Below are positions 1-39,625 of a stretch of DNA of 54,238 bases, piece by piece. The notes beneath the pieces are model-generated. The model searched no databases. It was not told the DNA's origin and was given only the letters and a program-made list of their open reading frames with translations. The translations under genes were made by a program, and so were the position numbers. Each line of letters opens with the position of its first letter. The stretch's first letter is position 1. The stretch comes from a virus. Its lineage: Duplodnaviria; Heunggongvirae; Uroviricota; Caudoviricetes. The stretch lies in IMG/VR virus record IMGVR_UViG_2541047842_000005. One strand, 5' to 3'.

Positions 1-231
1 TTATGTATTATCTTTGGCTGACGTTAAACCAATCTGATCAAAGAACTGCATTACGTCCTGATAGCGGTACATAACGCCACGCCCGGTACCAAGTACATCA
101 ACAGGGGCCGGGAACGGAGTTCCGTTCCGTTCCCACTTTTTACGCCATAAGTAAAACGTTCCCCTGCTAATTCCCCCCAGCATACGGCAGATGGCAGGGC
201 GACTAAGAAGAATTGTTGCCGTTTTATCCAT
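1..231 (-). CDS. AlpA-family winged-HTH protein (excisionase/regulator-like)
   Basis: 76 aa, ATG at 231-229 overlapping the stop of the upstream gene; LSRPAICRMLGGISRGTFYLWRKK..FPAPV..GRGVMYRYQDVMQFF fits the AlpA/Xis-type HTH pattern; its stop codon is the first 3 nt of the window. Confidence 0.55.
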   Translation of the reverse strand: MDKTATILLSRPAICRMLGGISRGTFYLWRKKWERNGTPFPAPVDVLGTGRGVMYRYQDVMQFFDQIGLTSAKDNT

Positions 232-886
232 TATTCACCCCCGTGTATTCAACGTGTCCTATACATCCGTCTATAATAGCTTGCGCCATATTGCGATAAT
301 CGCACGAAAATTCGTTGTCGCGGTTAAAATCAATTTCTTTTGCAGCATCTTCACCGATAACCTTAGTAGCAAGTGCAAACGCAATTTCAGCCAGTATTTT
401 TTCTTTCGGATCTACATACAACTTATGAGCGAAATGCTTCCATTCCCCGGCTTGTTCAAAATCAGGCGCATCCATTTCTACAAAAAGAGCAAGGCGATCA
501 CTTATATACTTGTATTTCAGAATAACATATTTCCGACCATCGACAGGATCTAGAAGCTCAAGCCATACTCCGCATGGAGGCTTTTCTCCTGCCATCCATT
601 CCGTAACTTCTGGCGTATCGCAATCATGCCGCTCATCTTCGATTAATTCGTCAATGATTTCACTTTCTTTGTTCATGCCATCATCATCTTTATTAGATAA
701 ATTGGCATATTTATCAAACTTCCAGCTTGCCGCCATAACAGAATAAGTGCCGCGATCAGCGCGAACACCAACTAAATAACATGATCCAAAATTATATTCT
801 TCCCTGCATGTCGATACTTCAAACGATGGGTAGCATTCAGGGTTAGTGCGATGGCTAATCACACCGATTGCTTTTGATTTACTCAT
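224..886 (-). CDS. hypothetical protein (220 aa)
   Basis: Long ORF in the minus-strand early operon; no motif recognised. Confidence 0.5.
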   Translation of the reverse strand: MSKSKAIGVISHRTNPECYPSFEVSTCREEYNFGSCYLVGVRADRGTYSVMAASWKFDKYANLSNKDDDGMNKESEIIDELIEDERHDCDTPEVTEWMAGEKPPCGVWLELLDPVDGRKYVILKYKYISDRLALFVEMDAPDFEQAGEWKHFAHKLYVDPKEKILAEIAFALATKVIGEDAAKEIDFNRDNEFSCDYRNMAQAIIDGCIGHVEYTGVNNG

Positions 887-12347: not shown

Positions 12348-12360
12348 AAGGATGAACATC

Positions 12361-12981
12361 ATGAACGACATCAAAACAGCTTATTCACTTGGCGGCAATG
12401 GCATGTTAATCACTCGCTACACTGAAGACGCAAGTGTTCATGAAGTGGAAACGAAGGATTATCACGAAGTATTAAAAGATATGGAAGCTGGCGCGTATGA
12501 CGCTGATTTAAACCTGGCTATGCAGATCGTTGATATTGTGATGGACGCGTCGATCCGCGATTATGTTTCTTTAAACGCTGAAGAAAAAACGGTTGTAGCT
12601 CGTTATGTCTTCTGTCTTACTTTCGTAAAACGCATGGAAGAGGATTTTGGTCGAGTGCCAGTGCCGGAAGAGATTGACCCGATGGCGTTCGGAAGTGCTG
12701 TTATCTTCCCGCTGGATGAAAATCATATGGGTAGCATTGCACTGCATACTATGCGTGACATGATGAAAAAACTGTTTGAAGTTAAATTGCTAGAGAAGTT
12801 CGTTGATGACGGTTACGAAGAAGAAGAAGTTAAACACCTTATGCCATTGTTTTACGGCGAAATGGTTGGCACTGATATGCGTGCAAATGATTTCGGCGTG
12901 CAGGCGGCTATAGCTGTGCTTAATGATGCACGGAAAAACTCACAGCCAATGCCTGAACCGGAAAAACGTGTACTGCATTAA
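12361..12981 (+). CDS. hypothetical protein (about 206 aa)
   Basis: Track start 12352; ATG at 12361 has AAGGA 10 nt upstream; acidic protein; followed by a dyad-rich non-coding gap. Confidence 0.45.
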   Translation: MNDIKTAYSLGGNGMLITRYTEDASVHEVETKDYHEVLKDMEAGAYDADLNLAMQIVDIVMDASIRDYVSLNAEEKTVVARYVFCLTFVKRMEEDFGRVPVPEEIDPMAFGSAVIFPLDENHMGSIALHTMRDMMKKLFEVKLLEKFVDDGYEEEEVKHLMPLFYGEMVGTDMRANDFGVQAAIAVLNDARKNSQPMPEPEKRVLH

Positions 12982-13783: not shown

Positions 13784-14005
13784 ATGGTTAAGAGCTTTTT
13801 AAACTGGTTAAAGGCGTGGCTTTTGGTTACGCTTTTTGTTTTTTTGGTGTTCAGTGGCGCTATCGTCATATTTACGCTGGGTATGATTTTTGTTACATGG
13901 TCAGTACCTGAATTTAACGACATTGAAAGCATTCTTTTTACTGTACGCGCTTTATTGGCTGGTAGCGCATTCATCGGTTTTTGCTTTACTGTTTCGCGTG
14001 ATTAG
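13784..14005 (+). CDS. small membrane protein (73 aa, two predicted TM helices)
   Basis: Two hydrophobic stretches (LLVTLFVFLVFSGAIVIFTLGMIFV and LLAGSAFIGFCF). Confidence 0.4.
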   Translation: MVKSFLNWLKAWLLVTLFVFLVFSGAIVIFTLGMIFVTWSVPEFNDIESILFTVRALLAGSAFIGFCFTVSRD

Positions 14006-14006
14006 G

Positions 14007-14255
14007 ATGAATGGTGATCCTATGGCTTTATTCAATATGTCAGAGCCGCAATTTAACGCCGTAAAGACTGCCGCCCGCGCCGCGCTTTCGGCCTGCAAAG
14101 CGGAGGTAGAGAAGAACGGCTACAGCGATAAAGCCACGCGGCTGATATTAGAGAAGCATTATCGCAAGGTTGCCCCACTAATCAGCATTGAGCGTTTTGT
14201 GTGGTTGGTTGGGTATCTAAATAATCGGTGGGGTACTGATCAGGATTATTTCTGA
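14007..14255 (+). CDS. hypothetical protein (about 80 aa)
   Basis: Track ORF 13890-14255 overlaps the preceding gene; in-frame ATGs at 14007 and 14022; start uncertain. Confidence 0.35.
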   Translation: MNGDPMALFNMSEPQFNAVKTAARAALSACKAEVEKNGYSDKATRLILEKHYRKVAPLISIERFVWLVGYLNNRWGTDQDYF

Positions 14256-14806
14256 TGGGGGTCATGATGAAAAATGATTTTGGAGGTAGTCACACTCCAA
14301 AGGAAATTAAAGATCTATGGCAGACGCCTAAACCAGTTTTCAGAGGAATGGACCGCGAATTTGAATTTGTCGCGGACGTGGCGGCAAACAAAGCAAACGC
14401 GCTAGTTCCGCGATATATAACCGAAGAAATGGACACGTTGCATTATCCGTGGGGAGCGGTGGCAATGCATGGTGAGTATGTTTGGCTTAATCCACCATAT
14501 TCTAATCCTGGGCCATTCGTTGATAAGGCGGCGCTTGAACATCAACGAAATCATATTGGCTGTGTAATGCTATTGCCCGCTGACATTTCTGTTAGCTGGT
14601 TTATGAACGGCGTGGAGACGGCAAACGAATGCCGATTAATCACGCGCGGGCGTCTGGCGTTTATCAATGCCGCTACTGGTAAGCCAGCAAGCGGAAACAA
14701 TAAGGGTAGCTTGTTCTTGATCTGGCATCCACGGTGCAGACATGAATGTATTTTCACGCAGATAACACGTAAAGAGCTATATGCAAGAGGTGCAGAAAAT
14801 GAATAA
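14255..14806 (+). CDS. phage Dam-family DNA N6-adenine methyltransferase
   Basis: 183 aa; WQTPKPVF N-terminal motif and NPPYS catalytic motif typical of phage Dam-like N6A methylases; alternative ATGs at 14264 and 14267. Confidence 0.75.
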   Translation: MGVMMKNDFGGSHTPKEIKDLWQTPKPVFRGMDREFEFVADVAANKANALVPRYITEEMDTLHYPWGAVAMHGEYVWLNPPYSNPGPFVDKAALEHQRNHIGCVMLLPADISVSWFMNGVETANECRLITRGRLAFINAATGKPASGNNKGSLFLIWHPRCRHECIFTQITRKELYARGAENE

Positions 14807-15119
14807 AGCGGCTGAATTGCTGAGACTTGCGGCTGAAACTATCGAGGCAAGAGGGGAGCAAAACGGATACGATCGAAAAGAAGAAAAATCAGCGCCAAAA
14901 ATAGCCACTATTTTCAACGCTAAGATGAATGCGAATTTAACCCCACTTGATGTATGGGATCTAATGATTTGCCTCAAGGAAGCGCGTTTAGGGGCTATTC
15001 TCGCTAATGGAACTGATCCGCTCGACACTCTTATAGACCTTATTGCTTATAACGCGCTTAAGGCCGAACAGATATTAGCGTATCGGGAGGAAGAGCTAAA
15101 TGAAGATGGTGGCAATTGA
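14799..15119 (+). CDS. hypothetical protein (106 aa)
   Basis: Track start 14781; ATG at 14799 has GAGGTG upstream. Confidence 0.4.
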   Translation: MNKAAELLRLAAETIEARGEQNGYDRKEEKSAPKIATIFNAKMNANLTPLDVWDLMICLKEARLGAILANGTDPLDTLIDLIAYNALKAEQILAYREEELNEDGGN

Positions 15120-15603
15120 CAGGTTATTAGCCTGCGTTTATGTCGCCGTTTTCGTTATCATCAATCTTATTGTTAACCACTGTGGCCCGTGGGTAATTCC
15201 GATCACCACGGTAGCCGCCGTGTGTGTCAATATGATGATTCGTGATTTTCTGTTATATGACGGCGGCCTTAAATGGTCGGCTACAACATGCGCCGCCGCT
15301 GGCGCAATCACGGTGCTGATAAATTACGACGCCGGAATGGTGGCGATCGCCTCATTCGTCGCGGTTGTTTCCGGTGCGCTTATTTCTGGCGGCGTTTACC
15401 GGGTTTTACCTGGTGATTTCGATTCGAAACGCTGGCCTGCAAATATAGCGTCAGCCATAGGCGATGCGTTGATTTTCCCTACACTATCGTTTATGGCGTT
15501 TATGCCGGAAATATCAGCGATGCAATTCATCTCAAAAATGGCAGCGGTAACGGTGATCACTATCATCATGCGCCGCTATTTCACGTTTGAGGGAAGAAAA
15601 TGA
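15100..15603 (+). CDS. YhhQ/VUT-family membrane protein (queuosine-precursor transporter-like)
   Basis: 167 aa, multi-pass hydrophobic; DSKRWPANIASAIGDALIFPTLSFMAF parallels the E. coli YhhQ segment RRWWLAPTASTLFGNVSDTLAFFFIAF as I recall it; shorter than YhhQ. Confidence 0.55.
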   Translation: MKMVAIDRLLACVYVAVFVIINLIVNHCGPWVIPITTVAAVCVNMMIRDFLLYDGGLKWSATTCAAAGAITVLINYDAGMVAIASFVAVVSGALISGGVYRVLPGDFDSKRWPANIASAIGDALIFPTLSFMAFMPEISAMQFISKMAAVTVITIIMRRYFTFEGRK

Positions 15604-16388
15604 GCAAGGGCAAACATTGGTTAAATAATTGGCTTAGAAGTTGGGTGGTGTGGTCGCTGTACGACGGCAGCGGGTACGCCGTTAAAGATTGGGCGGAAGC
15701 GGGATATAAGTGCTATTGCTTCAATTATGACGGTGCAAATCACGGCGATTATGAAGGCGTTAAAATCATTCATCCTAATATTGAATACGTTAACGTGTGG
15801 ATTGACAGCCATTTCCTGGTAATGTTCTCGCCTGAATTGTCTTCTTATCCAGCACCTGACATTATATTGGGCTTTCCGCCGTGCGACGATCTCGCCGTTT
15901 CAGGCGCTCGCTGGTTCGCTGGTAAACGGGAAAAAGATCCTGCCTTCCAGGTAAAGGCGGCGTATAACGCAAAACTGGTAGAAAAACTGGCGAATATGTA
16001 TAACGTGCCGTGGATGGTGGAAAATCCGGTGGGCGCACTGTCAACGTTATGGCGCAAACCTGATTTTATCTTCAACCCGTGCGCTTACGGTGGCTACCTG
16101 CCGGAAGACGATAAACACCCTGCTTTCCCTGAATACATAGCGGCCCGCGACGCATACACGAAGAAAACTTGTATCTGGTGCGGGAATGGATTTAAGCAGC
16201 CGCTATTCCGGCCTGTGCCAATGCCTGATGAATGGGAAGACAGTAAGCAGCACGCTAAGTTAGGAGGAAAGTCGAAACGCACTAAGATGATCCGCTCACT
16301 AACGCCGCGCGGCTTTGCCCGTGCTGTATTCCTGGCTAACGACCGGGCCATCAATCGCACTACGCTTAACCGCGTTTTACCGGACTGA
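15600..16388 (+). CDS. DNA cytosine-C5 methyltransferase-like protein (divergent motifs)
   Basis: 262 aa; motif I-like VWSLYDGSGYA, PC motif GFPPCDD (PCD rather than PCQ), ENV-like MVENPVG. Confidence 0.5.
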   Translation: MSKGKHWLNNWLRSWVVWSLYDGSGYAVKDWAEAGYKCYCFNYDGANHGDYEGVKIIHPNIEYVNVWIDSHFLVMFSPELSSYPAPDIILGFPPCDDLAVSGARWFAGKREKDPAFQVKAAYNAKLVEKLANMYNVPWMVENPVGALSTLWRKPDFIFNPCAYGGYLPEDDKHPAFPEYIAARDAYTKKTCIWCGNGFKQPLFRPVPMPDEWEDSKQHAKLGGKSKRTKMIRSLTPRGFARAVFLANDRAINRTTLNRVLPD

Positions 16389-16547
16389 AATTTACAAAAT
16401 GGCGCCATTGCGTGATGTGGATCACATAATGGCGCTATTCACCTTGTTCTGGTGTATCCATTTTGTATACTTCAAGCAAACGAAATGCTCTTTAAAAATC
16501 CGGCAGCGCTGAAATGCGTAGAAATCACCTGAAAAGGAGAGAGCATT

Positions 16548-17981: not shown

Positions 17982-18160
17982 AAAACGAAATTAAAGATCT
18001 GCAAATAGATGTTCAACGTGACGAGCATGATTTAGCGACAGTCAGACGAATCCAGGCTTTTCACATGCAGGAATTACTTGCGCTGAAAGAGCTTGAAAGA
18101 AAACTGGTGCAAACCATTTCTGATCGCAAACGCCTTATTGCTCGCTATGGGGGCAAATAA
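17978..18160 (+). CDS. hypothetical protein (60 aa)
   Basis: Compact ORF; predicted coiled-coil-like sequence. Confidence 0.4.
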   Translation: MKNEIKDLQIDVQRDEHDLATVRRIQAFHMQELLALKELERKLVQTISDRKRLIARYGGK

Positions 18161-18888
18161 TGAATTTAGAATCCATTCTGAAATTCCACTTTCCCAAATC
18201 ACCGCGATTATCAGGCGAAAGCCGGGGAACATCCCCGGATGCACTTAATACGACGGATGCGCTTACCGCCGCTGGTATGGCGCAATCGCGCGTAGAGCTT
18301 GGCTATAGTGCTTTTTTAGGGAAAATGGAGCTATCGCAAGCTGAAAAACACAGGGCCGTAATTTTGCTTACAGAGCGTTTAAGGGTTATGGCGAAAGATT
18401 ACGAATACGTGATGGAATTAAATGAAGAACAACGCAATGATCTTATTATTCTTGTTGCCGTTTTCGCGTTTCGGGATTACTGCCAAAGTGCGGCTACCGA
18501 AAAGGTTTGCCCTAAGTGCGGAGGTAACGGGCTTTTACCGAATCCATATTGTGAATACACATCGACAGTTTGCTCGCGGTGCAACGGCAAAGGCTACGTT
18601 AAAAACCATTGCCAGAGGTGCAAGGGGCGTGGCGAAGTACCGGATAAAGCAGCCAGCGAAGCGGCGGAAATGCCAGTATTCAAAACGTGCCAGCATTGCG
18701 GCGGGCGCGGGTACTCGCGTTTCCCTGTAGATCTTGTCCGGCAGGCGGTTAATCAGCTTGTTTTCCAGGTAAGCCGATCAACATGGTGGAAGAAATACCG
18801 CGCTTTCTATGAAGACGCCATTGCTGAATTGTTCAAGGAAGAGGCGCGGGCTGATAACGAAATTAAACGAGTTACGCGGGGTGAATGA
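18160..18888 (+). CDS. putative late antiterminator Q-like protein with four CxxCxGxG zinc-finger repeats
   Basis: 242 aa; CPKCGGNG, CSRCNGKG, CQRCKGRG, CQHCGGRG; position directly after ninG-rusA as Q in lambdoid phages; family assignment is from memory. Confidence 0.45.
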   Translation: MNLESILKFHFPKSPRLSGESRGTSPDALNTTDALTAAGMAQSRVELGYSAFLGKMELSQAEKHRAVILLTERLRVMAKDYEYVMELNEEQRNDLIILVAVFAFRDYCQSAATEKVCPKCGGNGLLPNPYCEYTSTVCSRCNGKGYVKNHCQRCKGRGEVPDKAASEAAEMPVFKTCQHCGGRGYSRFPVDLVRQAVNQLVFQVSRSTWWKKYRAFYEDAIAELFKEEARADNEIKRVTRGE

Positions 18889-22701: not shown

Positions 22702-23408
22702 TTGTGCACAGAAAACCCCCAGCTAGGCTGGGGGTTCCGGAAAGCTTTCAGCTTTGAGCCAGTTATTAAAACCCCTTTTGATTTGTTAAAACACCTTGCG
22801 GTCTGGCAACTGCAAGTGTCAAACAAGAAATCAAAAGGGGGTCCCAATGGGGAACGAAAAGAGCTTAGCGCACACCCGATGGAACTGTAAATATCACATA
22901 GTTTTTGCGCCAAAATACCGAAGACAGGTGTTCTACAGAGAGAAGCGTAGAGCAATAGGCAGTATTTTGAGAAAGCTGTGTGAGTGGAAAAGCGTACGGA
23001 TTCTGGAAGCTGAATGCTGTGCAGATCATATCCATATGCTTGTGGAGATCCCGCCTAAAATGAGCGTATCCGGGTTTATGGGATATCTGAAAGGGAAAAG
23101 CAGTCTGATGCTTTACGAGCAGTTTGGTGATTTGAAATTCAAATACAGGAACAGGGAGTTCTGGTGCAGAGGGTACTACGTCGATACAGTGGGTAAGAAC
23201 ACGGCGAAGATACAGGATTACATAAAGCACCAGCTTGAAGAGGATAAAATGGGAGAGCAGTTATCGATTCCCTATCCGGGCAGCCCGTTTACGGGCCGTA
23301 AGTAACGAAGTTGGATGCAAATGTCAGATCGTGTGCGCCTGTTAGGGCGCGGCTGGTAAGAGAGCCTTATAGGCGCATTTGAAAAACCTCCGGCTATGCC
23401 GGAGGATA
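22702..23408 (+). mobile_element. IS200 (IS200/IS605 family) insertion sequence
   Basis: Contains a tnpA colinear with IS200 TnpA; perfect left-end hairpin CCCCCAGC-TAG-GCTGGGGG at 22716-22734, RBS-sequestering inverted repeat at about 22772-22822, right-end hairpin CCTCCGGC-TAT-GCCGGAGG at about 23388-23406; boundaries estimated from the expected ~707 bp length, +/-10 bp. Confidence 0.7.
22847..23305 (+). CDS. tnpA: IS200 transposase TnpA (HUH Y1 transposase)
   Basis: 152 aa from MGNEKSLAHTRWNCKYHIVFAPKYRRQVFY; HxH motif ADHIHMLVEIPP and C-terminal catalytic region RNREFWCRGYYVDTVG match IS200 TnpA; the track ORF 22796-23305 includes an upstream extension. Confidence 0.9.
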   Translation: MGNEKSLAHTRWNCKYHIVFAPKYRRQVFYREKRRAIGSILRKLCEWKSVRILEAECCADHIHMLVEIPPKMSVSGFMGYLKGKSSLMLYEQFGDLKFKYRNREFWCRGYYVDTVGKNTAKIQDYIKHQLEEDKMGEQLSIPYPGSPFTGRK

Positions 23409-38965: not shown

Positions 38966-39625
38966 TTAATTCCAGTTGCAAGCGTTTTTCACTTTGTCGA
39001 TGTGGTTATAAAGACCATCAATGTTAAACACTGCTTTCTCAATGTCGCCAGCTTCCGGCACTACTTCAATGATGAATTGTTTTTCGTTAACCAGTTTTTT
39101 AATCATTGGGATGGCTTTTTTGCCGTCCCATAATCCAAGAGCTTTATAATTAGTTGACCGCCACCACTCAGTAGCTACAGCTTTGTGAACGCCGATCCGG
39201 TAGTTAATATAAGTAGTGTCCCCGGCGTCAGTTACATGGTGTGACCATGCTACGAACATTTTTGTTTTATTACCCTGGCAAGCGATTGTTAATACCGGTT
39301 TATTCTTATCCTGTGCCTTCAGTGTCGGGAAAGCATCAAGACTTCCGCTGAATTGTTCTGCTTTCACAAAAAGGAATACGTTTTTTGCGTCCTGCATATC
39401 ATCTTTTCTTTCAACTACAAGCCACTGTTTACCAGCATTTTCTTTTTCTAACTGTGCATCGTATGCGGCTTGTTTTGCTTGTTGTTCTGCAAGCCATTTA
39501 GCATTTTTCTCTGCTAATGCTTGTTGCTCTTGATTGGTCACTATAGGCGCTTTTTCATTATCCTCATTGCAACCAACCAGACCCAATACCGCCGCAATCA
39601 TTGCCACTTTTGCTAACCGTTTCAT
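38966..39625 (-). CDS. lipoprotein (moron, opposite strand within the tail operon)
   Basis: 219 aa; signal peptide with lipobox LVGC (MKRLAKVAMIAAVLGLVGC); SD GGTGGG upstream. Confidence 0.65.
   Translation of the reverse strand: MKRLAKVAMIAAVLGLVGCNEDNEKAPIVTNQEQQALAEKNAKWLAEQQAKQAAYDAQLEKENAGKQWLVVERKDDMQDAKNVFLFVKAEQFSGSLDAFPTLKAQDKNKPVLTIACQGNKTKMFVAWSHHVTDAGDTTYINYRIGVHKAVATEWWRSTNYKALGLWDGKKAIPMIKKLVNEKQFIIEVVPEAGDIEKAVFNIDGLYNHIDKVKNACNWN

Follow-up and report, generated by a model that had tools for sequence, protein, structure and literature searches.

Positions 14,255 to 16,388 of a 54,238-nucleotide tailed-phage sequence (IMG/VR record IMGVR_UViG_2541047842_000005), which we analyzed at full length and call the window, raise the question of what a phage does with a relative of E. 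coli YhhQ when the window carries no DpdA, the DNA-guanine transglycosylase beside which the short phage members of this transporter family appear, as a rule, to be encoded. A first-pass annotation, made from the sequence alone, had read the locus as three adjacent genes, coding for a Dam-like methylase, a YhhQ/VUT-type transporter homologue, and a divergent C5-methylase-like protein, and had proposed that the transporter may feed the last of these. All three open reading frames (ORFs) are present on the plus strand (183, 167, and 262 aa); however, they are not adjacent, as a gene for a DUF6378 protein (14781-15119) fills the gap from 14806 to 15100, and the unit therefore consists of four genes. 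The reading that we favor, by a narrow measure, is that this is a translationally coupled early cassette of four genes whose products act independently and not in one pathway, and that its VUT gene has lost a DpdA partner and is kept by selection. The features are listed below together with their homologues in the cultured E. coli phage mEp021.

14255-14806, plus strand: Dam-family N6-adenine methyltransferase, 183 aa; homologue of mEp021 gp30
14781-15119, plus strand: DUF6378 protein, 112 aa; homologue of mEp021 gp31
15100-15603, plus strand: VUT/YhhQ-family membrane protein with six helices, 167 aa; phrog_4899; homologue of mEp021 gp32
15600-16388, plus strand: compact C5-cytosine methyltransferase-like protein, 262 aa; phrog_757; homologue of mEp021 gp33
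16398-16439, plus strand: RNA hairpin, recognized by its folding energy, that marks the cassette end

Along its entire length, the segment from 14000 to 16600 matches seven cultured E. coli phages at 88-89% nucleotide identity (mEp010, mEp013, mEp021, mEp044, mEp515, mEp554, and MagusPhagus; mEp021 represents the mEpimmI group), and the window phage is a gut E. coli temperate phage, a siphovirus, of the mEp021 (mEpimmI) group. According to PMC11893012, phages of this type are prevalent in the human gut. Within the cassette, the DUF6378 gene shares 26 nt with the Dam gene and 20 nt with the VUT gene, and the VUT stop codon overlaps the methylase start codon (ATGA); no sigma-70-like promoter stands out inside the four-gene unit. 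The arrangement is kept in every mEp021-like locus examined, and the distant relative L004 has the same four genes in the same arrangement (48-66% protein identity). The gene order is that of mEp021 (ipe-like gene, gp30 (Dam), gp31, gp32, gp33), where gp33 is followed by an annotated terminator and then by ninF, ninG, rusA, and Q; the window has Pfam matches for NinG, RusA, and Q. This mEp021-like order therefore places the cassette in the delayed-early right operon, in a nin-type region. The hairpin starts 10 nt past the methylase stop codon and folds with a minimum free energy of -30.5 kcal/mol (z = -5.3; 0 of 200 shuffled sequences fold as well). Its inner stem reads GUGAU...AUCAC, with a 3' arm that overlaps a GATC, and the hairpin is without a clear U-tract. 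Its position matches the terminator annotated after gp33 in the mEp021 record MH706966 (TERM_4, predicted terminator t4), and in the mEp021 paper nutR2 lies past the methyltransferase gene (PMC11893012), i.e., at the position of the hairpin, which marks the cassette end as a putative terminator or nutR2 position. Upstream of the cassette, the C-terminal part of the ORF at 13890-14255 is a homologue of mEp021 ipe ("inducer of pleiotropic effects," gp29; phrog_303), and the TTG start listed for this ORF probably over-extends the gene.

How sure is it that the membrane protein is a transporter of the YhhQ type? A Pfam search with the window protein itself returned nothing at E ≤ 0.1, PF02592 (Vut_1) included, and neither NCBIfam nor the PDB gave a match; a 54%-identical homologue (P0009) scored 20.8 bits against Vut_1, below the cut-off of 27.2. 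Single-sequence BLASTP against E. coli YhhQ reached E = 0.19. A profile of six close homologues aligned to YhhQ with a probability of only 0.6%, being too shallow, and for this reason it was used in an exhaustive HMMER search of 1.84 billion representatives, which revealed at least 261 relatives. Of 60 full-length relatives, 57 match PF02592 (best E = 1.3e-13), and in hhalign the 60-sequence profile aligned to E. coli YhhQ over 141 columns (probability 93%, E = 2.8e-7), indicating that the YhhQ homology claimed in the first-pass annotation is real and that it is detectable through profiles only. The AlphaFold model (predicted local distance difference test score, pLDDT, 93.6) shows a six-helix, S-component-like membrane fold, a structure search of BFVD returned a "putative vitamin uptake transporter" among three confident matches, and phrog_4899 members in Opt-719, Phleasolo, Sadiya, and PEAT2 are already annotated as "VUT family protein." Judged by profiles and predicted fold, the membrane protein is a member of the VUT/YhhQ family.

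E. coli YhhQ (COG1738, PF02592), an importer of preQ0 and preQ1, thus belongs to the same family and has the same six-helix, S-component-like fold, and both proteins carry the motifs D..R after helix 1, N...A.AS, and D(S/A)..FP..F. Unlike YhhQ (221 aa), the window protein is 167 aa long, shares about 22% identity with it, and falls into a distinct phage clade, phrog_4899. The S components of energy-coupling factor (ECF) transporters (RibU, 3p5n; FolT; ThiT; BioY) resemble it in fold, whereas identity to them is only 9-16% and the window has no EcfT/A/A' energizing module near the VUT gene; by analogy with YhhQ, the protein presumably works alone. Some VUT relatives are longer, at about 300 aa (P0158, P0160, P0162, and about 20 others), and carry a C-terminal extension of about 140 aa that has no Pfam match and is preceded by an extra hydrophobic segment.

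The genes that accompany this family were clustered in 80 IMG/VR contigs with VUT relatives at 31-37% identity, a sample drawn by the peptide pattern DS..FP..AF, which is characteristic of the clade linked to DpdA. In 76 of the 80 contigs, the VUT gene had as its direct neighbor, on the same strand, a gene of about 245 aa, and two of the four exceptions were cut at the contig edge; 71 of the 90 ORFs in this neighbor cluster lay immediately upstream of VUT with a gap of at most 50 nt. The neighbor is phrog_887, "queuine tRNA-ribosyltransferase" (E = 8.9e-66), and the corresponding DpdA hidden Markov model (HMM) matched PEAT2 protein ATV25085 (E = 2.7e-55), which adjoins the VUT gene of PEAT2 and is listed as DpdA by Hutinet et al. 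2019 (Supplementary Data 1; PMC6884629). Since the DpdA profile found no match among PDB sequences, its identity rests on phrog_887, RefSeq names, and the Hutinet 2019 list. In an unbiased search, five of the seven nearest VUT representatives adjoined DpdA or a short DpdA-like gene. Three of them (P0136, P0137, P0141) have the same DpdA adjacent to VUT; in P0140 and P0142 the adjacent gene codes for a phrog_15826 protein of about 200 aa with the DpdA core motifs IDNGAFS and PDV (hhalign E = 0.007), which is therefore probably a short DpdA-like enzyme; and for P0133 and P0138 there was no DpdA in the flanks seen. Gene neighborhoods of this kind suggest that the short phage VUT protein usually has a DNA-guanine transglycosylase as its partner. 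At L197:33-605 and L199:283-897, phrog_15826 proteins ("unknown function") of this size and with these motifs lie immediately upstream of VUT, and they may constitute a short, unannotated DpdA subfamily.

Known phage DpdA-YhhQ modules (CAjan; PEAT2, with ATV25103 and the DpdA ATV25085) carry a VUT protein homologous to that of the window at 32-37% identity and sit in a comparable early or nin-type region with NinB and RusA nearby. Unlike these modules, the window has no DpdA and no FolE/QueC/D/E, and the neighbors of its VUT gene are two DNA methylases. Deletion of yhhQ from CAjan left preQ0 modification unchanged (PMC7544227), and the transporter is therefore accessory even in complete systems.

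Is DpdA truly missing from the window? A six-frame search of the whole 54 kb with the DpdA HMM gave nothing better than E = 0.7, the phrog_15826 profile had no match in a six-frame search of the window, and the motif DN[GDA][AC]F is absent from all frames. We found no FolE or QueC/D/E among the scanned window ORFs or in the mEp021 and MagusPhagus annotations, and the PHROG-based annotation of MagusPhagus, whose late region is structural, contains no tRNA-guanine transglycosylase (TGT) or Que gene. The earlier statement that the window has no recognizable DpdA/TGT or QueC/D/E gene thus holds by HMM, motif, ORF, and annotation checks. Early-region ORFs of at least 140 aa code for a DnaB-like helicase, an exonuclease, an HNH endonuclease, an O-like initiator, a repressor, Erf, NinB, and a protein with a weak MarR-like match. 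The early proteins of 209-220 aa that are without a functional assignment are those at 224-886 (minus strand; no PHROG or Pfam match) and at 12352-12981 (match to phrog_1515, unknown, only), and these two are the only early ones large enough to hide an unrecognized enzyme. Since all viruses in which 7-deazaguanine DNA is known have turned out to possess a transglycosylase (Cui/Hutinet et al. 2023, PMC10516641) and there is no DpdA here, deazaguanine modification of the phage DNA is not expected.

One could nevertheless suppose that the VUT protein serves 7-deazaguanine DNA modification and that DpdA is provided in trans, by a co-resident prophage or a host dpd island, or is hidden in the phage itself. 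The VUT family is DpdA-linked almost everywhere else, divergent short DpdA-like proteins (phrog_15826) are missed by the main HMM, and two window proteins of about 210-220 aa are without assignment. Yet neither DpdA profile has a six-frame match and no DNGAF-type motif occurs in the 54 kb, and reliance on a variable factor in trans fits poorly with the strong constraint on the gene (dN/dS 0.04; see below). E. coli K-12 is not known to have a dpd island, which counts against a DpdA in trans. The mEp phages propagate on this very host (strain W3110; PMC11893012), and we consider this explanation improbable.

In a neighbor-joining tree rooted on E. coli YhhQ, the VUT proteins of the window, L004, and P0133 fall into a single clade without DpdA. 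Its sister is P0136, which is DpdA-linked, and all of them together branch from within the phage family. The simplest history, suggested by this tree without support values, is that the linkage to DpdA was lost once and VUT was then retained. P0133 is the closest DpdA-less VUT relative outside the mEp021 group, and P0133-type phages are assigned to a Succinivibrio metagenome-assembled genome. Scanning genome collections for the DpdA-less clade returned one short Succinivibrio contig only, and scanning metagenomes returned only near-identical mEp021-like copies. That the sub-clade as a whole (mEp021 group, L004, and P0133-type) serves a DpdA-independent purpose, either import of a precursor for a nucleic-acid modification made by a non-TGT enzyme of the cassette (the C5-methylase-like or the DUF6378 protein) or manipulation of host queuosine tRNA by importing precursors during infection, is an idea to which we give little credence. 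In the P0133-type phages (L085:6516-7363, L086, L087, L173), two paralogous phrog_2510 proteins of unknown function (140-144 aa) always follow VUT and a 75-aa protein always precedes it, and these are the only constant neighbors of the DpdA-less VUT gene in phages of this type.

Quantification of selection revealed that the VUT gene, over 20 mEp021-like sequences, has a ratio of nonsynonymous to synonymous substitution rates (dN/dS) of 0.041, the lowest of five neighboring genes (NinG 0.066; Dam 0.069; methylase 0.119; DUF6378 0.123). The gene is intact in 22 of 23 mEp021-like loci, and the window protein keeps all family-conserved polar residues (Y14, N22, R48, D49, S85, N115, D122, and K146). 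We rejected the possibility that VUT is a decaying relic on the grounds of its dN/dS of 0.04 and its integrity in these loci. By these measures of its coding sequence, the orphan VUT gene is functional and kept by strong purifying selection.

Does the transporter feed the methylase? This proposal of the first-pass annotation was not supported by co-occurrence or by deletion variants. Among the 80 IMG/VR loci closest to the window methylase, a VUT gene is present in 19, all of them mEp021-like (≥83% identity), and it was found near the phrog_757 methylase in none of the 61 loci that are not mEp021-like; from the transporter side, a phrog_757 gene occurs in only 2 of the 80 VUT loci. Residues 54-162 of the methylase, and with them its PC and ENP motifs, are deleted in two loci (L148 and L150) whose VUT gene is intact and 96% identical. 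Fusions also exist: in L090 (protein P0010) Dam is fused to the VUT C-terminus, and in P0012 the VUT N-terminus is fused to the methylase. Such deletion and fusion variants (L148, L150, L090; P0010, P0012) occur in gut metagenomes and in E. coli prophages. In P0133-type contigs, an N6/N4 methylase lies two genes downstream of VUT in some and is absent from others (L086 and L173). The genes for DUF6378, Dam, and the phrog_757 methylase stand together without VUT in the unrelated phages L130, L133, L135, and L136, suggesting that the methylase neighborhood is recurrent and that VUT is an add-on to it. As phrog_757 occurs without VUT in 61 of 61 loci and VUT survives deletion of the methylase, the feeding idea finds no support.

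A broader form of the same idea holds that VUT imports a precursor for a non-canonical enzyme, the C5-methylase-like or the DUF6378 protein, which would replace DpdA and place a novel base in the phage DNA. It can draw on the strict co-inheritance of four overlapping genes in mEp021-like phages, including a 54%-identical relative, on strong purifying selection of VUT without DpdA, on the non-canonical PC(T/D) and ENP of a methylase family that has no Pfam or NCBIfam match, and on the fact that in some contigs a DNA methylase gene lies two genes away from the DpdA-less P0133 as well. Against it stand the distributions and the methylase deletions just described, together with the P0133-type loci that have no methylase. 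In addition, the methylase keeps all S-adenosylmethionine (SAM) and C5-methyltransferase motifs and aligns to DpdA with an hhalign probability of 0.2%, and mEp phage DNA is cut by NdeI (restriction fragment length polymorphism patterns; PMC11893012), arguing against wholesale hypermodification. Of the explanations weighed here this one is the least supported, and we think it very unlikely.

What, then, is the 262-aa protein? It matches phrog_757 (E = 1.6e-88), a family of more than 7,700 homologues found in Salmonella SSE121 and STP-SP1, Escherichia A7_1, and Citrobacter BlueShadow, among others, and for which no report of characterization was found in the literature searched. The protein has no match to PF00145 or any other Pfam family or to NCBIfam (the latter matched none of three of the four cassette proteins), and in single-sequence searches of the VUT and methylase-like proteins against the PDB the best match was a Kirbac channel at E = 1.2; precomputed PF00145 matches exist for two phrog_757 members, P0025 and P0131. 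It carries "GFPPCDDLAVSG" and "VENPVGAL." The first-pass annotation had called attention to PCD and ENP in place of the canonical PCQ and ENV. These motifs are indeed present and the canonical residues are not, but the deviation is not peculiar to the window: over 25 diverse phrog_757 members, ENPV never varies and PPC[T/D] is usual, with PPCT in most members and PPCD in the window and its nearest relatives. Also invariant or nearly so are G23/S24/G25 (motif I, DGSG), P94-C95 (motif IV, PPC), E141-N142-P143-V144 (motif VI), W151-R152 (WRKP), R232-S-L-T-P-R (IRSLTPRG), N247, and WID at the motif III position.

The methylase profile matched DNMT3B weakly among PDB sequences (E = 0.25), with motif I aligned and "PCtDLa" placed on the DNMT3B sequence "PCNDLS"; since DNMT3B has PCN, a residue other than Gln after the catalytic Cys has precedent in active enzymes. 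A Foldseek search of the PDB with the AlphaFold2 model (pLDDT 85.7) gave DNMT3A/3B/3C and 3g7u as the top 47 matches (E = 1.6e-6 to 1e-4; template modeling (TM) scores 0.37-0.51), the best being the DNMT3A/3B/3C catalytic domains (TM-score 0.45-0.5; E about 1e-6). With the compact phrog_757 methylases, the DNMT3A/3B domains, and the prophage CP-933R methylase 3g7u, the protein shares a Rossmann C5-methyltransferase fold and motifs I (DGSG), IV (PPC), VI (ENxV), IX (RSLTPRG), and X (xAN); it has Arg at the motif VIII position and, as in the PCN of DNMT3, a residue other than Gln after the catalytic Cys. It differs from DNMT3 and 3g7u in that TM-scores reach only 0.45-0.5 and PF00145 is not matched, and the phrog_757 methylases are very short (about 230-260 aa), with an insert of about 80 aa where a target-recognition domain is expected. 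Fold and catalytic motifs thus agree with the earlier designation of the protein as C5-methylase-like, and the model points to a compact orphan C5-cytosine methyltransferase with a DNMT3-like fold that is probably active. An inactivated, degenerate, or re-purposed enzyme was rejected, as every catalytic motif is invariant across the family, and so was a disguised DpdA (hhalign probability 0.2%).

The Dam gene raises fewer questions. Its product matches PF05869 end to end (E = 1.7e-51; 174.7 bits, cut-off 28.1) and the NCBIfam equivalog TIGR01712 (140.8 bits, cut-off 97.05), belongs to phrog_111, and has the (D/N)PPY catalytic motif as NPPYS at residues 79-83 (WLNPPYSNP, residues 77-85), as the first-pass annotation had stated on the basis of the motif. 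PADLOC classed it as an orphan methylase and reported nothing else in the window. Members of the phage Dam family (PF05869/TIGR01712) include the GATC methylases of phages T1, HP1, and VT2-Sakai; the window protein shares with them the full-length profile match and NPPY and shows no notable difference, and by this kinship it most likely methylates adenine in GATC. The first-pass annotation had further suggested that dyad motifs containing GATC might be linked to Dam methylation. GATC occurs 257 times in the window against 254 expected (observed/expected 1.01) and is thus neither avoided nor enriched; composition therefore gives no support for such a link, and we rejected it on this basis.

The DUF6378 protein matches PF19905 (E = 3.5e-9) as well as phrog_474 and phrog_9871, and its gene is conserved in L001, L002, L004, and 17 IMG/VR loci. 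At 112 aa it is about 54 aa shorter than its counterparts in mEp021 and MagusPhagus (166-170 aa). A PDB search gave no match, and we found no functional literature on the family. The protein often travels with methylases of the Dam and phrog_757 types. The PHROG label "phosphofructokinase" attached to this family looks like a propagated misannotation.

From these assignments we infer substrates, methylation specificities, and a physiological role for the cassette. Dam would methylate adenine, most likely in GATC, and the compact, DNMT3-like orphan C5-cytosine methyltransferase would methylate cytosine in a short motif, and together the two might protect the phage DNA against restriction. The VUT protein, a solitary transporter resembling an ECF S component, would import a small heterocycle; judged by family association, the most probable one is a precursor of the 7-deazaguanine type (preQ0, preQ1, or a base like queuine). 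Its lineage would have lost the ancestral DpdA partner, with strong selection keeping VUT itself. With no DpdA, the imported base has no known route into DNA, and the host tRNA pathway is the only known route left; the most economical role for VUT would be to supply the queuosine-tRNA pathway of the host during infection, or to take up a related compound. Phages with queuosine-pathway proteins and without DpdA are a recognized group and have been proposed to boost the level of queuosine precursor (Hutinet et al. 2019, PMC6884629), and by analogy the window phage may be placed, conceptually, with them.

Several observations weigh against this reading of independent products and an orphaned importer. 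E. coli has its own YhhQ and makes preQ0 de novo by a complete pathway, and a phage-borne importer therefore looks redundant, which is odd beside its strong conservation. The four genes overlap and are always found together in the mEp021 group, as a functional unit would be. The count of 76 DpdA-linked contigs in 80 is inflated by the pattern-drawn sample, and the unbiased sample comprises seven proteins. A DpdA too divergent for the HMMs, or supplied in trans, is conceivable. Finally, the mEp021 clade differs from the family at three nearly invariant VUT positions (S123A, A130S, and G149A), and the specificity of VUT may therefore have changed.

This last point leads to a serious rival, namely that VUT has been recruited elsewhere, to import some other vitamin-like substrate or to act as a membrane effector in superinfection exclusion, membrane potential, or lysis timing. 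The S-component fold serves many substrates (riboflavin, folate, thiamine, biotin, and cobalamin), the substitutions at three nearly invariant family positions are clade-specific, the DpdA-less VUT proteins (window, L004, and P0133) group together in the tree, and the host already has a redundant YhhQ. However, all family-conserved polar residues are retained, the gene sits in the delayed-early operon and not in the position of a moron expressed in lysogeny, and nothing independent points to another substrate or an exclusion phenotype. We regard such a change of function as possible though rather doubtful; a DpdA acting in trans or hidden in the phage ranks below it.

Returning to the reading that we favor, each of the four genes falls into a phage family that is already known, and for three of them the existing mEp021 annotation is roughly right (gp32 appears there as "putative membrane protein," and gp33 as "putative DNA cytosine methyltransferase"). 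New here are the placement of gp32 in a protein family, the very close apposition of VUT and DpdA among its relatives, and a DpdA-less sub-clade under strong purifying selection. This amounts to an improved annotation and a modest puzzle and not to a new kind of system: the proteins are ordinary family members in a mildly unusual context, and the two methylases are ordinary anti-restriction equipment. The assignment of gp32 to YhhQ/VUT provides a testable substrate hypothesis, and the mEp021 lineage provides a natural experiment in which a transporter of the 7-deazaguanine-precursor type is kept without a DNA transglycosylase. If the transporter feeds the queuosine pathway of host tRNA, the phage would exert control over translation; if it feeds something else, a new pathway would be involved.

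Two further ORFs of the window lie apart from the cassette. A 169-aa ORF at 22796-23305, in the interval bounded by the genes for the Q-like antiterminator (18160-18888) and lysozyme (25892-26383), matches the transposase families phrog_2577 and phrog_2393 (E about 1e-48) and is possibly an IS200/IS605-type TnpA insertion. In the tail-gene region, a 219-aa ORF on the opposite strand (38966-39625, minus) matches VasI of type VI secretion (PF11319, E = 1.2e-15) and, by its match and position, looks like a moron.

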